From Escherichia virus TH38: a DNA stretch of 64,000 nt. Position 1 is the stretch's first letter. Every line of letters begins with the position of its first letter. The notes beneath the pieces were generated by a model, which did no database searches, was not told the DNA's origin, and saw only the letters and a program-made list of their open reading frames with translations. A program made the position numbers and the translations under genes. The stretch is taken from sequence record MT446410.1. One strand, given 5' to 3'. Positions 56,139 through 61,226 of the stretch are shown here, piece by piece.

Positions 56139-56795
56139 TTAACTCTCCAAAGTTTTCTTCAGAGCTGCCCACGAGATTGGGTAGAGTTTAGCCATCTCTT
56201 CATCTAGAGATTTAGCAAACACTCGAACTTCATATTGAGCGTGAGAGGAGAGTCGCTGACGGCACAACTCAAACCAGCCATACAAAGAACCAGTCCACAC
56301 CCACTCAGTGATCATCCCCTGAGGAAGAACAAATCGAGCTTGCTCTGGTGCAATAAATTCAATCAACTTGTCATATGCTGCTAGAGAAGCTTCATATGCA
56401 TCATTAATCAACATTAATGCTTCAGCTCGCTCTCCGTCGAGGAGTTGAATCCCTGAACCTGCATGGAGGTCCGAAGGTCTCGCAAAAATCTCTTTAGGGA
56501 TGAAGACTTCAACTGCTCCATCTTTATACCGCCGGGACATTTCGTTCCACGAGAATCCAACCTGATGCTTGCCCAACTGTCTCGCAATTGCGATAGGTGC
56601 TTTGCATCGGAAACTGACTTGCGGGTGTCGGAATGGAGTACAGTGTTTTTCCCGTGCAAGGAAGTTGATAAGTTTTGTGTCTCTCTCATTTAAGTCGCCT
56701 TCTCGAACAACACCGAAAGATACTCTAGCTGCATTGACTACAGATTTGTCACTACCCATTGCTTCAATCAGTGTTGCTTGTAGTTGTTCGTTCAA
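56139..56795 (-). CDS. ThyX-like flavin-dependent thymidylate synthase (divergent motif)
   Basis: HCTPFRH and GKHQVGFSWNEMSRRY resemble the ThyX signatures, with KH in place of RHR. Confidence 0.5.
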   Translation of the reverse strand: MNEQLQATLIEAMGSDKSVVNAARVSFGVVREGDLNERDTKLINFLAREKHCTPFRHPQVSFRCKAPIAIARQLGKHQVGFSWNEMSRRYKDGAVEVFIPKEIFARPSDLHAGSGIQLLDGERAEALMLINDAYEASLAAYDKLIEFIAPEQARFVLPQGMITEWVWTGSLYGWFELCRQRLSSHAQYEVRVFAKSLDEEMAKLYPISWAALKKTLES

Positions 56796-57234
56796 TTAAA
56801 AGTTCCTTTTTTCGATTCATGTAAACTTGATGAGCTTCTTCGGCAGTTCCATACATACCTAGATGTATATCTACTTTATCAATACAAATAACAGCCCTAT
56901 ATCTGATAGTTCCTGATCTGTATTTGACAACCTTAACACCTTGAAGCCCTGTTTCCTTGTTTGATACTCTAGCCCCGAACTGGTTGTGGCAGTTTGTCGA
57001 GGTGTCCACCAATCTCAAGTTCTGTATTGAGTTGTTCTTCTTATTTCTATCGATATGATCTATCTGAGAAGAAGGCCATTCTCCATAATAAAAGAACCAT
57101 GCCACTTTATGAGCTTTGTGTACTTTCCCTTTAAACCGCAGGGTTATGTACTTACTTCGAGTTCCTCCTAATTTCTTACCTTTTCGAAAGAACTCTCCAG
57201 TCTCAGGGATATACTCTAAATCATCGATTACCAT
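56764..57234 (-). CDS. HNH homing endonuclease with AP2-like DNA-binding domain
   Basis: IDHIDRNKKNNSIQNLRL and GVKVVKYRSGTIRYRAVICI. Confidence 0.6.
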   Translation of the reverse strand: MVIDDLEYIPETGEFFRKGKKLGGTRSKYITLRFKGKVHKAHKVAWFFYYGEWPSSQIDHIDRNKKNNSIQNLRLVDTSTNCHNQFGARVSNKETGLQGVKVVKYRSGTIRYRAVICIDKVDIHLGMYGTAEEAHQVYMNRKKELLIERTTTSNTD

Positions 57235-57499
57235 TCAGAGCTGTATCTAAAAATGCTTTCAGGTTTGCTTCAGTCTGCATACCAGAGAGGCTGTAGTGTG
57301 TACCGCTGTTACGGTCAGGCACAACGAAAGCAGGGATACTTCGTACACCATACTTAACAGCTTGTTCACGACCATCACCTTCAAGGATGTTAATCTCTTC
57401 CACTTCTACATCAAACTCCTTAACAACCTTCTCAAAGGTAGGAGCCATTGCTTTACATGGAGCACACTGATCGCTATAAAACTTAATTACTTTAGACAT
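57221..57499 (-). CDS. Thioredoxin
   Basis: CAPC active site, 92 aa. Confidence 0.7.
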   Translation of the reverse strand: MSKVIKFYSDQCAPCKAMAPTFEKVVKEFDVEVEEINILEGDGREQAVKYGVRSIPAFVVPDRNSGTHYSLSGMQTEANLKAFLDTALNGNR

Positions 57500-57517
57500 G
57501 TAAATCCTTATGCAGTC

Positions 57518-57687
57518 AAGAGGTGAAGCAGGAACGGGATAACAACAGCTACGATAACCATGATAGTTGATGCTGTTTGAATCTCACCTTTCTTATCAGG
57601 AGTTTCTTCAATAAGCTTACCAGAAGCCCAATAAATACCACCACCAATAAAGATAGCCCAAATACCCCATACGATTGCTGATAACAT
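57518..57687 (-). CDS. Small two-TM membrane protein (56 aa) missing from the ORF track
   Basis: ATG with AAGGA RBS; MLSAIVWGIWAIFIGGGIYWASGKLIEETPDKKGEIQTASTIMVIVAVVIPFLLHLLTA. Confidence 0.4.
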
Positions 57688-57747
57688 ATATCTATATCCT
57701 TATAAATAAGTTCTCCCCACCTCGGGTTAGGAGACAGGGCGGAGGTT

Positions 57748-58359
57748 TTAGTAAGACACATCACCACTTGAATGGGACATGTTGCTCTTGACGAAGTAGC
57801 AATACTTGCCAAGACCTTCATTAATTTCTTGAAGCATACTCTGATCGACAGGGTAGGTGGCTAAATCACCATCAAACTCATCCATCTTCTCAATAATACA
57901 CATCAAGGTCATGCACATATCAGAGAGCATACCGTCCATGTCTAGATCAGCATTACCCTCTGAGAACCAAGCATGGGAGAGATAATTAGCTGCTGTAGCA
58001 TCCACTTTAACGCAGTGGTAACGCATACGTTCAGCAATACGATCTCCTACCTGTCGTGCGTAATCTTCCAGCTCATCAAACATACCATGAACACCCTGAA
58101 ATCCTGCACCAGAGACGTTCCAGTGGTAGTTTTTAGCTTTGATATGCAATAGTTCCATGTTAGCTTGTAAGCAGCTCAGGATGTGTTCTAGGCTGTTTCC
58201 ACTAATCATACCTTGCATTGTTTCAAGGCGAGAGATTGATAGGTCGGACCGGTCTAACATGCTATAACTATCACGACCAATCTCAGGTAAATCAAAAACA
58301 TTCTTATGCATTTGGGTTTTCTCCATCAAGTTCAACTGAGTTAGCAACGTTACGTGCAA
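57748..58359 (-). CDS. Dps-like ferritin (DNA-binding ferritin-like protein)
   Basis: NYHWNVSGAGFQGVHGMFDEL matches the Dps ferroxidase-site signature. Confidence 0.55.
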   Translation of the reverse strand: MHVTLLTQLNLMEKTQMHKNVFDLPEIGRDSYSMLDRSDLSISRLETMQGMISGNSLEHILSCLQANMELLHIKAKNYHWNVSGAGFQGVHGMFDELEDYARQVGDRIAERMRYHCVKVDATAANYLSHAWFSEGNADLDMDGMLSDMCMTLMCIIEKMDEFDGDLATYPVDQSMLQEINEGLGKYCYFVKSNMSHSSGDVSY

Positions 58360-58633
58360 TATTATCCATTACCTGCTGGGTAATTACGATGCAGTTCTGT
58401 GGGTCTACTGACTTAGAACGCCCCATTTCAGGGTCATACACCTTAACTCGCTTAGCAGTTGAGCCTGTAACCTGAAGAACCTTCAACAGATATCCCTGAT
58501 TACCAATAGACCAAGCAACAACATCACGATTCTTGATAAAGCGACCAAGCATATCACGATGATAAAACTGTTGCATCACCTTGGATTTTGTAATCTCTTC
58601 AGTGGGCGGGGCCACTTTACTCAAATCTAACAT
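58304..58633 (-). CDS. Hypothetical protein (109 aa)
   Basis: ORF. Confidence 0.4.
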   Translation of the reverse strand: MLDLSKVAPPTEEITKSKVMQQFYHRDMLGRFIKNRDVVAWSIGNQGYLLKVLQVTGSTAKRVKVYDPEMGRSKSVDPQNCIVITQQVMDNIARNVANSVELDGENPNA

Positions 58634-58705
58634 AACTCTCTCCTGTAAAATACAAATTCTTATTGTACTCTATATACATTTGAGAGTTATCATATCTACT
58701 ACCAA

Positions 58706-58915
58706 TCAGTAGTAAATTACTTTAGACATAAAAGAACCAGTGTTAGGGTCTTCATACCAGCGATGTATGTCAGCGCTTTTTACTATTGTGCCCAGAGTCT
58801 TCAACTGTTTCTTAGCAATACGAGCCTCTTTGCGAGTGTCAAACAATTTGATGTTATCTTTTCTCATGTGTTGCTCAAGATCCCAAACAACATGAATAGC
58901 CCACATCTTTTTCAT
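58706..58915 (-). CDS. Small basic protein, tandem paralog 3 of 3 (C-terminal ...KVIYY)
   Basis: Shares the TR..AR..KK ... SKV.YY pattern with its two neighbours. Confidence 0.5.
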   Translation of the reverse strand: MKKMWAIHVVWDLEQHMRKDNIKLFDTRKEARIAKKQLKTLGTIVKSADIHRWYEDPNTGSFMSKVIYY

Positions 58916-59124
58916 TAGTAATGTACCTTTCCGCTGATATAAACACGACCAGAAGAATACTCCTTGGCCTTATGAATACTGATGCTCTTAGTTAAGTCTA
59001 CATTGAACATAGACTTTTTAAAATCTCGAGCCTGTTGACGAGTGGGTAGTGCAGTCATAGTCATACCACCTGATGCCCACTTAATCTTTGCTAACCAAAA
59101 TTGTCTCATAGTGATCGGTCTCAT
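58915..59124 (-). CDS. Small basic protein, tandem paralog 2 of 3 (C-terminal ...KVHY)
   Basis: 1-nt start/stop overlaps with neighbours. Confidence 0.5.
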   Translation of the reverse strand: MRPITMRQFWLAKIKWASGGMTMTALPTRQQARDFKKSMFNVDLTKSISIHKAKEYSSGRVYISGKVHY

Positions 59125-59321
59125 TAATAATAAACCTTACTGTTAACACAAAAAGCACCTTCACTATTCACGATAGCTTTTCCTAGTGTAACCTTATTAA
59201 GTCTAAAAGTAGATTTGTATTGATTTTTGACCCTACGTGCGTGCTCTCGAGTCTTAACAAAATCTACAGCTACTAACTCTCCAGTCGTGTTATCATGTAC
59301 ACGAACAATCCACTTTTTCAT
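59124..59321 (-). CDS. Small basic protein, tandem paralog 1 of 3 (C-terminal ...KVYY)
   Basis: As above. Confidence 0.5.
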   Translation of the reverse strand: MKKWIVRVHDNTTGELVAVDFVKTREHARRVKNQYKSTFRLNKVTLGKAIVNSEGAFCVNSKVYY

Positions 59322-59855
59322 TTACACACCTTTAGATGCAACTACACCTTCAGAGTTATTATAACGACCCTTCACTGCATAGGAGTGCTCCCCTGCATGA
59401 GAGTGCTCAAACATAACCATCTGACCAACACGCATACCAGCACGAACTCGTAAGCTATGATGCTTGGTTACGTTATGGAATTCAAATGTCAGCTTACTGC
59501 TATTAAACCCTGCGTCTGCCCACCCAGCGTGGAGATGGTTCAAACCACAACGAGCCATAGATGAACGCAGAACAAACAGACTTGAGATGTTATCTGGAAG
59601 ATTAAACTCCTCCATAGAGTGAGCCAAGAAGAACTGACCCGGAGTGATAACCAAACCCTCTTCAGGAATCTTTACTTCCTTCCACTGAAGATTCTCTTTC
59701 GCATCAATATCAACGATGCCATCAGCCTGTTCTTCAACAAGGATAGTATCACCAATACGGATATCCACACTAGCAGCGTTAACATACTTATGCTCCGCAT
59801 CCAGATAGCCATTGTCAATTACATCGTGCAGTTCAACACTTCCTAGTAAACTCAT
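59322..59855 (-). CDS. dCTP deaminase / dUTPase-superfamily enzyme
   Basis: ASVDIRIGD, ITPGQFFLA and RSSMARCGL...HAGWADAGF motifs. Confidence 0.55.
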   Translation of the reverse strand: MSLLGSVELHDVIDNGYLDAEHKYVNAASVDIRIGDTILVEEQADGIVDIDAKENLQWKEVKIPEEGLVITPGQFFLAHSMEEFNLPDNISSLFVLRSSMARCGLNHLHAGWADAGFNSSKLTFEFHNVTKHHSLRVRAGMRVGQMVMFEHSHAGEHSYAVKGRYNNSEGVVASKGV

Positions 59856-59864
59856 TCTTATTCC

Positions 59865-61226
59865 TTAGTTGTTTGTTTCCATGTCAAAAGAGATTCCACG
59901 ACCCGCTTCATCGGCAAACCGAACTGTGCGGGTTTGAGGTTCTAATACTTCAGGGTTGTTAGCAACAAAGCGGTCAGCGAGATTTCGACTGATGGTCTCA
60001 GCAAGTTCCTCATGAGAAGGAACATCAAGACTACCTGCCACATCTTGGGCCACACCTTCATCAGTCCACACAGCCCTAACAGGTGCGTTGATATCACCAA
60101 CAGCAAAACCCTGACCAGAGAACTGACGTGCGCTAACAGTTAAACCATTTGGACGACCACGAGAAGGACTAGCCATCCATCTCTCCATAGAATCACTTGT
60201 AATACCAAGAGCTTCTTCAAAAGATGTTCTACGAGTAGGGCTTACTCTTCGTGACTCTTGTGCTCGGCGCATTGCAGGGGCTACAAACACCCCTTCAATT
60301 GCATTGTGCCGATTAGGTTCATCTTCTCGACCAAGGAGATCTCCTCCTGTATTAGTTGTTAAGTTTGTCAACCCTTCAGACCAATATGCACGAATCTGGC
60401 TAGAGCCATGAATGCTTGACATTAACTGAATCTCTTCATAAGGGATTCCAAAGAATCGACTCATGTCTCGGTTAACACAATATTGAGCACTTGTTGTATC
60501 CTCAATAAGAGAAACCTGACCTAATCCATTAACCAGATGACTAACCGGCTGGGGTGTGGGAAGATATCGAGTTTGGGCCATGTATTGATGTGCAACTGCT
60601 GGAGAGGAAAATCTCAATACTTGCGAGTTAGGCCACTTCTTGTGAACGTATCTGATTTCACGACTAGAAACAACCACTGGACAGGGGGCGGTCATAGCCA
60701 AATACCCATGAGAAGTCATGAATAAATTGTCAAGAGTCATCGCACCACGACACATCATAGGAAAATTATCCAATACCTCTTCAATAGAAGTAGGATAATT
60801 AAACATGAATTGGATACGAACCCCATTCCACTGAAACTCAATAATATCAGTGAATGTTAATTGAGAACCCCCAGCATAGGATTCGTTCGTAGCTTCAGCA
60901 AGAAGGGATGCATACTCGATATCTTGTGACTCTAGCCATTCCTTCACATTACTTTCAATCTCTCTTCCAAGAGCTTGCCAACGGTCAGTTGGGATGGATA
61001 TGTTTTGAGTTCTTGGTGTTTGTCCTCTGACAATAAAGATATCAATGTCATGTGGAGCTGTGTTATTAAGCACAGCATCTCGAACAGCCCCACCAGTAAT
61101 GATGGGACAGATACCGTCTGGAATTAAGTTGTTATTAATCAATTGCTCAATGAAGTGACGACCAACAGTGATATCAGGTTGTTGAGAAACCTTATCTTCA
61201 ATTTGGTTAATCGGGATAACAATCAT
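59865..61226 (-). CDS. Pol-beta superfamily nucleotidyltransferase (tRNA CCA-adding / poly(A) polymerase head-like) with about 330-aa extension
   Basis: ITGGAVRDAVLNNTAPHDIDIF; start taken at the ATG one nt after the exonuclease stop. Confidence 0.5.
   Translation of the reverse strand: MIVIPINQIEDKVSQQPDITVGRHFIEQLINNNLIPDGICPIITGGAVRDAVLNNTAPHDIDIFIVRGQTPRTQNISIPTDRWQALGREIESNVKEWLESQDIEYASLLAEATNESYAGGSQLTFTDIIEFQWNGVRIQFMFNYPTSIEEVLDNFPMMCRGAMTLDNLFMTSHGYLAMTAPCPVVVSSREIRYVHKKWPNSQVLRFSSPAVAHQYMAQTRYLPTPQPVSHLVNGLGQVSLIEDTTSAQYCVNRDMSRFFGIPYEEIQLMSSIHGSSQIRAYWSEGLTNLTTNTGGDLLGREDEPNRHNAIEGVFVAPAMRRAQESRRVSPTRRTSFEEALGITSDSMERWMASPSRGRPNGLTVSARQFSGQGFAVGDINAPVRAVWTDEGVAQDVAGSLDVPSHEELAETISRNLADRFVANNPEVLEPQTRTVRFADEAGRGISFDMETNN

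Follow-up and report, generated by a model that had tools for sequence, protein, structure and literature searches.

A tandem array of three small, basic paralogs follows the dCTP deaminase gene in a phiEco32-like phage

The window analysed here, the whole stretch of 64,000 nucleotides, was recognised by sequence comparison as a phiEco32-like Kuravirus (coliphage). Its region 57500–60500 shares 99.3% identity with Escherichia phage EC.W2-6 and 96% with phiEco32, and is matched by 98 Escherichia/Shigella phage records (genus Kuravirus and relatives). Within this region, three short genes stand in tandem between the dCTP deaminase gene (dcd; phi32_72 in phiEco32) upstream and gene 68 (phi32_68) downstream. 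Their phiEco32 orthologs are phi32_71, phi32_70 and phi32_69, each annotated "hypothetical protein", and the three are called gp71, gp70 and gp69 below. Beyond dcd, further upstream, are genes for a nucleotidyltransferase, a polymerase exonuclease and a primase/helicase; downstream of gene 68 are Dps-like, thioredoxin and ThyX genes. The features of the locus are listed here in the direction of the minus strand.

59322–59855, minus strand: dCTP deaminase gene (phi32_72 ortholog), the conserved upstream anchor of the array, abutting gp71
59328–59332, minus strand: AAGGT, Shine-Dalgarno sequence of gp71, in the last codons of the dCTP deaminase gene (…SKGV-stop), 7 nt before the ATG
59124–59321, minus strand: gp71 (65 aa), the gp71-type paralog orthologous to phi32_71, which opens the array
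59134–59138, minus strand: AAGGT, Shine-Dalgarno sequence of gp70, 10 nt ahead of its ATG, supplied by the Lys-Val codons at the gp71 C-terminus (SKVYY)
58915–59124, minus strand: gp70 (69 aa if counted from the overlapping ATG), the gp70-type paralog orthologous to phi32_70
58925–58929, minus strand: AAGGT, Shine-Dalgarno sequence of gp69, 10 nt ahead of its ATG, supplied by the Lys-Val codons at the gp70 C-terminus (GKVHY)
58706–58915, minus strand: gp69 (69 aa), the gp69-type paralog orthologous to phi32_69, which closes the array
58304–58633, minus strand: gene 68 (PHROG 10984), the conserved downstream anchor of the array slot
57748–58359, minus strand: Dps/ferritin-like gene (phi32_67 ortholog)
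57221–57499: thioredoxin gene
56764–57234, minus strand: HNH homing endonuclease gene (HNH-AP2; PF13392, E = 1.6e-13), between the thioredoxin gene and ThyX

The dCTP deaminase of related loci was found with PF22769 (DCD). Gene 68 is among the most conserved genes of the region (91–100% identity across three genera); its homologs in Grimontviridae and Lahexavirus are 31–37% identical, and the Dps-like gene always adjoins. In the GenBank records of EC.W2-6, IMEP8 and pEC-N1203-2Af.1, the phi32_67-type Dps/ferritin-like gene is labelled "integrase", which looks like a propagated mis-annotation.

The initial annotation had described three adjacent, translationally coupled ORFs of 65–69 aa with single-nucleotide overlaps. 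The ORF coordinates agree with this description, as do the two junctions within the array: gp71/gp70 (59126–59122) and gp70/gp69 (58917–58913, both on the minus strand) each read TAATG, in which stop and start codons share one nucleotide. The dCTP deaminase stop codon stands directly against the gp71 start codon (TAA, then ATG). The same design recurs in related loci, where 18 of the 19 distinct intra-array junctions are TRATG overlaps and AGG occurs in [K/E]-V codons approximately 10 nt upstream at 16 of the 19. An overlap combined with a Shine-Dalgarno sequence in the preceding tail fits translation by termination-reinitiation, and the coupling proposed from the start is retained as a prediction. 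The locus is a clear example of C-terminal codons ([K/E]-V-x-Y-stop) that double as the ribosome-binding site of the next gene and overlap its start. The tail is constrained at the protein level too, since the last array gene keeps V-x-Y without the need for a Shine-Dalgarno sequence. We infer that the near-identical junctions may also drive the gain and loss of copies by unequal crossover. For gp70, a second in-frame ATG five codons in, at 59109, would give a 64-aa product, and the exact start is uncertain because 64-aa orthologs begin at this second ATG; the overlapping ATG has the AAGGT-10 nt-ATG geometry, as for gp69. Two 79-aa metagenomic variants of gp71 (P0074 and P0090) carry a frameshift near residue 57 and continue past the junction, reading the gp70 region out of frame (…PTVRFIINETDHHETILVSKD); they probably reflect sequencing or assembly mistakes or derive from pseudogenes.

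gp71, gp70 and gp69 are true paralogs that form one family. By BLASTP, gp71 matched gp70 with E = 1e-4, gp70 matched gp69 with E = 1e-3, and gp71 matched gp69 with E = 0.09. When separately built ortholog profiles were compared with hhalign, the paralogs aligned over their full length (60–65 columns), with P values of 9.5e-6 (gp71 and gp70), 2.4e-8 (gp71 and gp69) and 6.4e-10 (gp70 and gp69), so that an alignment of the three does detect significant similarity. All three also matched PHROG 4939 end to end (gp71, E = 1.2e-27; gp70, E = 1.8e-27; gp69, E = 1.7e-28), covering profile positions 1–67 or 2–67 of 67, with gp70 aligned from residue 6. The pattern that had first been read by eye, a Trp followed by a TR..AR..KK core and a similar tail, is borne out by these searches: a Trp in strand 1, T-R-x-x-A-R-x-x-K and a terminal Tyr are invariant in the three proteins, whose C-terminal tails are SKVYY, GKVHY and SKVIYY, respectively. 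The proteins are about 8 kDa and basic, with pI values of 10.1 (gp71), 10.6 (gp70) and 9.8 (gp69) and net charges of +8, +10 and +6. Paralogs within the array share just 27–43% identity, and the duplications are therefore old. There is no fourth paralog in the window (best other ORF, E = 0.5). A recent gene conversion between the gp70 and gp69 tails was considered on account of their likeness as proteins (…SGDRGSYISGDVYY versus …SSGRVYVSGKVHY) but found no support in the DNA, where the two tails are identical at 37 of 69 positions, versus 37 of 70 for unrelated tails of the window.

How far the family extends was examined by profile searches. A search of 5.8 billion proteins returned 92 clusters, all of 64–87 aa and on contigs of ~77 kb, and a second search of the same database with a wider profile added no further members. 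An exhaustive HMM search of 1.84 billion representatives gave only 22 hits, of which 21 were stand-alone proteins of 65–79 aa and one was a low-complexity false positive. With gp69 as the tblastn query, 101 phage records were retrieved; all but three weak chance matches were Escherichia/Shigella phages. Across these databases the family is confined to the phiEco32-like phage lineage, and the array ORFs are intact in about 100 phage records. Searches of Pfam (E ≤ 10), NCBIfam and PADLOC (E ≤ 1) returned no match for gp71, gp70 or gp69; PADLOC models omit anti-defence proteins, so the empty result there says little on an anti-defence role. A search of PDB sequences with two family profiles gave one chance match (E = 0.048) and no other, Rfam matched neither strand of 57500–60500, and a literature search found no publications on PHROG 4939 or phi32_69–71. 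Two candidate relationships were rejected. An AP2/integrase-type DNA-binding domain had been prompted by a W…T-x-E-A pattern and by the neighbouring HNH-AP2 gene, but hhalign gave a probability of 0.3% over 10 columns for the family profile against the HNH-AP2 protein (56764–57234). A GIY-YIG nuclease remnant had been prompted by a tblastn match at E = 0.3, which was judged to be chance, and the family was not placed in that group. PHROG 4939 was thus already catalogued, and its members are "hypothetical" in about 100 genomes; no earlier description of the paralogy, the array dynamics, the junction design or the predicted fold was found in the searchable literature.

AlphaFold2 models built with family alignments reached a pLDDT of 84 and a pTM of 0.68 for gp71, and a pLDDT of 87 and a pTM of 0.71 for gp69. 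The two models have a common β-β-α-β-β topology: a β-hairpin, a helix of 12–14 residues with the invariant T-R at its start, then a second, long hairpin and a C-terminal bridge. BFVD models of orthologs of the gp70 and gp69 types can be overlaid on that of gp71 at TM scores of 0.71–0.78. Structure prediction yielded a confident ββαββ fold; the structural search that accompanied it gave generic matches and no tie to a known nucleic-acid-binding domain. In strand 1 the side chains alternate in a way that would place the conserved Trp in the core, beneath the helix. In both models, residues 64 and 68 form a β-bridge; the aromatic YY/HY tail that had been pointed out is present as far as the terminal aromatic residues go, but it probably belongs to the fold's last β-strand instead of hanging free. 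Across the family, invariance or near-invariance is limited to W, T, R, (A), R, K and the terminal Y, and R, R and K on the helix are its only invariant polar residues. Positive charge is conserved as well: 28 diverse members (25–43% identity) have pI values of 9.56–11.03 and net charges of +5 to +12, versus a median pI of 8.7 (range 4.1–11.5) for the other small ORFs of the window. Sequence variation is concentrated in the β1-β2 loop, the post-helix loop and the second (β3-β4) hairpin, and discrete C-terminal modules are seen among members.

Wherever the array occurs in related phages, it occupies the same slot after dcd and before gene 68. The number of copies in this slot varies as follows.

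0 copies: L014 (a distant IMG/VR phage), Grimontviridae, Lahexavirus
1 copy: three 82–90-kb uncultivated phages, the copy being divergent (hhalign 2e-7 to the family)
2 copies: Suseptimavirus (SU7, EK010, ECBP2) and L028
3 copies: Kuravirus, Nieuwekanaalvirus EP335 and L005
5 copies: L026 (an 87-kb contig)

No family member was found beside the dcd or gene-68 homologs of L014, Grimontviridae and Lahexavirus, and the phages whose dcd homologs stand without an array are L014, GAP52, SE131 and P59. Some phages have one or two extra family members in a second slot, between the thioredoxin gene and ThyX (ECBP2, NJ01, KBNP1711, L006 and L022/L023), where the window has its HNH homing endonuclease gene. 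Unrelated ORFs lie between dcd and the array in NJ01, WFI101126, O18-011, IMEP8, ECBP2 and KBNP1711. Inserts placed between dcd and the first array gene, in Kuraviruses and Suseptimaviruses, include a 68-aa acidic, Cys-containing protein, MTEEEFQELK… (L007, 2110–2316; L015, L018 and L019, 992–1198), and proteins of 63–66 aa with a hydrophobic segment (MKEEKATYLAIGF…; L004, 2098–2289; L010, 2092–2292). The dcd–array slot is a general hot spot for accessory genes. In the uncultivated 82–90-kb relatives, a very acidic protein of 65–74 aa that ends in C-x-x-C-K/M-I (L011, 2195–2410; L012, 2193–2390; L013, 2177–2401) precedes the single divergent member and is absent from the window.

We then compared rates of change in the array with those of its flanks. 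Among 11 phages, dN of dcd and gene 68 was 0.00–0.07 at dS up to about 1 (0.00–0.06 among relatives for dcd alone), and dN of the array genes rose to 0.2–0.5, such that amino acids in the array change at about 5–10 times the rate seen in its two flanking genes. In close pairs, dN/dS was 0.2–0.8 for array genes versus about 0.03–0.1 for flanking genes, and the gene-wide value for array genes stayed below 1 in almost all pairs. From their dN/dS (0.1–0.7), together with their intactness in about 100 records, the array ORFs look like real coding genes. Identity to a given relative differs strongly from one array gene to the next: between the window and KBNP1711 it is 99% for gp69, 56% for gp70 and 52% for gp71, and between the window and EP335 it is 92% for gp71, 48% for gp70 and 60% for gp69. 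Judged from these alignments, allelic types reassort independently, and the array evolves by gene birth and death together with the independent exchange of allelic cassettes. Positive selection was sought in the variable segments by partitioned NG86 dN/dS; values were mostly 0.2–0.8 and exceeded 1 in only two of about 55 pairs, a result that looks like relaxed constraint and not demonstrated positive selection.

In the 72-nt spacer after gp69, one site fits tAATGTAtA, the promoter consensus of the phage sigma factor (gp36), and a motif scan found six exact WAATGTATA matches in the window versus 1.6 expected by chance.

58673–58681, minus strand: AAATGTATA, match to the gp36 promoter consensus, promoter of gene 68
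20150, 37694, 47591, 47663, 54091 and 58673: WAATGTATA matches in the window

In phiEco32, experimental mapping placed a gp36-dependent promoter before gene 68 (PMC8948821), one of six mapped gp36 promoters that lie upstream of genes 6, 13, 26, 40, 58 and 68. The six motif matches of the window and the six mapped phiEco32 promoters agree in number. Inside the array, no promoter or terminator scored above chance, and since the gene 68 promoter follows, the array is the tail of the upstream transcription unit. Primase/helicase, polymerase exonuclease, nucleotidyltransferase and dCTP deaminase are encoded in this operon as well. A sigma-70-like match (TTTACT-16-TATGAT, 9/12) at 58689–58716 on the minus strand lies across the gp69 3' end and immediately precedes the phage-sigma motif, and a sigma-70 promoter before CDS 68 was described in SU10 (PMC4281155); gene 68 may therefore have dual promoters. 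CDS 69–125 of SU10 were assigned to the early class and CDS 25–68 to the middle class (PMC4281155), and gene 79 has been called a middle gene (PMC8948821). As these secondary statements disagree, we describe the array as "early or early-middle". Mass spectrometry of concentrated (PEG) SU10 particles identified 34 proteins, among them gp65, gp67, gp68 and gp74, with CDS 69–72 absent (PMC4281155); this absence is weak evidence, as small K/R-rich proteins give few tryptic peptides.

What might these proteins do? The reading that we favour, tentatively and well short of conviction, is that the paralogs are independently acting accessory proteins that bind a polyanion, most likely nucleic acid. The T-R-x-x-A-R-x-x-K ridge on the N-terminal half of the single helix would contact the polyanion, most likely DNA or RNA, and the hypervariable β1-β2 loop, post-helix loop and β3-β4 hairpin would tune the recognition by each copy. 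Each paralog would act alone and not as a subunit of an obligate complex, coupling would hold the array proteins at roughly fixed ratios to dCTP deaminase, and the accessory role would consist in modulating or protecting nucleic-acid transactions during infection, outside core replication. Polyanion binding is favoured because of the conserved positive charge, the Arg/Arg/Lys ridge at the helix N-terminus, the RRM-like fold class and the replication context. Independent action is proposed because alleles reassort and the copy number is 0, 1, 2, 3 or 5, and accessory status because the dcd and gene-68 homologs of L014, Grimontviridae and Lahexavirus have no family member beside them. Several points count against nucleic-acid binding. 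There is no sequence or structure match to a known nucleic-acid-binding domain, the fold matches being generic, and the list of these matches also holds protein-binding miniproteins (Dmd, AcrIIC3 and de novo binders). Fast evolution, copy variation and an accessory hot spot are commoner for host-interaction genes than for DNA/RNA-binding helpers. The invariant arginines could be structural instead, for example by pairing with the positionally invariant C-terminal carboxylate.

The main competing explanation, possible but rather doubtful, is that the proteins inhibit host factors or anti-phage defence by binding to proteins: variable loops on a common scaffold would recognise different or variant host proteins, and changes of host would be followed by array expansion and allele exchange. 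This would account for the range of 0–5 copies and the use of a second slot that is common to homing endonucleases and unrelated ORFans, for an array dN of 0.2–0.5 against 0.00–0.07 in flanking genes, and for the placement of variation in loops, hairpin and discrete C-terminal modules. The early class in SU10 (PMC4281155), the T4 antitoxin Dmd and AcrIIC3 among the fold matches, and the unusual resistance of Gordonclarkvirinae to restriction-modification systems, for which no inhibitor is known (PMC11990801), point the same way. However, dN/dS in the variable segments is mostly 0.2–0.8, a uniformly high basicity is unexpected for proteins with differing targets and is the opposite of that of DNA-mimic anti-restriction proteins, and the early promoters are a long way upstream of the array, which is set within a replication/nucleotide-metabolism block and not at the ORFan-rich early start. 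The initial annotation had taken the tandem expansion as typical of a host take-over or anti-defence locus; copy variation from 0 to 5, fast change, reassortment, accessory slots and early class agree with that view, but the position in the replication block, dN/dS rarely above 1 and basicity count against it or are neutral. Polyanion binding and inhibition are not mutually exclusive. A further, unlikely reading is that the array represents a new class of modular, basic anti-defence miniproteins, jointly explaining the resistance of Gordonclarkvirinae to restriction-modification and to most other tested defences (PMC11990801). Such proteins could coat or mask phage nucleic acid, or could block the nucleic-acid-binding sites of defence enzymes.

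The tight coupling of the genes to dcd and to each other by junction design, and their constant place behind dcd in every locus with an array, would also suit a single obligate hetero-oligomer, or a regulatory partnership with the dCTP deaminase trimer or the nucleotide-metabolism complex, with the proteins made 1:1:1 by coupling. We consider this distinctly improbable, given that copies vary from 0 to 5, that a 99%-identical gp69 can stand beside gp70 and gp71 of about 50% identity, that unrelated ORFs separate dcd from the array in the six phages named above, that the dcd homologs of L014, GAP52, SE131 and P59 have no array, and that extra members occupy a second slot far from dcd. Relaxed constraint (dN/dS up to 0.6–0.8 in close pairs) and dispensability of the family in relatives are what functionless or nearly neutral filler ORFs, persisting by duplication at repetitive junctions, would show. 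That reading is very unlikely when set against ORFs intact in about 100 genomes, scaffold residues invariant at 25–40% identity, conserved charge, a fold predicted confidently and consistently, and dN/dS clearly below 1 in nearly all pairs. Least probable of all, and drawn from analogy, is that these small basic proteins could be packaged inside the virion and enter the cell along with the DNA, in the manner of T-even IPI–III; small size, basicity, polymorphism, tandem arrangement and a conserved N-terminal MKK-x-W would be in keeping with it. But CDS 69–72 are absent from the SU10 mass spectrometry (PMC4281155), which is weak evidence for small K/R-rich proteins, the genes belong to an early/middle operon and not to the late genes, and the conserved N-terminus is predicted to form the first β-strand, as opposed to a targeting peptide that is cleaved off.

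As it stands, the array is an ORFan family in an otherwise well-annotated phage. Should a function be found, the family would be a scaffold of ~65 aa diversified into at least a dozen deeply divergent types within one phage lineage, and a candidate for the restriction-modification resistance of Gordonclarkvirinae. These phages, some of them candidates for phage therapy, are often isolated with diverse E. coli strains as hosts; if the array were the class of anti-defence miniproteins described above, paralog number and allele type would set the host range for plating.

Compared with known systems, the array is of a familiar kind, that of phage accessory small-protein families, and gives no evidence of a new mechanism. 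PHROG 4939 is the same family, as all three proteins match it end to end, and carries no function. With the RRM/ferredoxin-like α+β sandwich (palm domains, bS6, PII, BMC and the PsaD core), the likeness is one of fold class only, the array proteins having one helix and no common motif; with de novo ββαββ miniproteins, too, it is a likeness of fold class with no homology signal. T4 Dmd and AcrIIC3 score no better in the fold list than many unrelated proteins, at 4–12% identity. T-even internal proteins are small, basic, encoded in tandem and polymorphic between close relatives; they share a conserved N-terminal segment with a cleavable capsid-targeting sequence, are made late and reside in the virion. 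The array proteins are likewise small, basic, tandem and strongly polymorphic, with a conserved N-terminal segment, and the T-even loci are an analogy only: by contrast, the array proteins were not detected in the concentrated SU10 particles, come from an early/middle operon and begin with a β-strand, and we do not count them among the internal proteins. DNA-mimic anti-restriction proteins such as Ocr and ArdA are strongly acidic. The array proteins have the opposite charge (pI 9.6–11.0) and a different fold, and their genes are not on the first DNA to enter or the first to be expressed. Ocr, ArdA and the array proteins are nevertheless all small phage proteins, and the array could likewise explain the restriction-modification resistance of Gordonclarkvirinae (PMC11990801).
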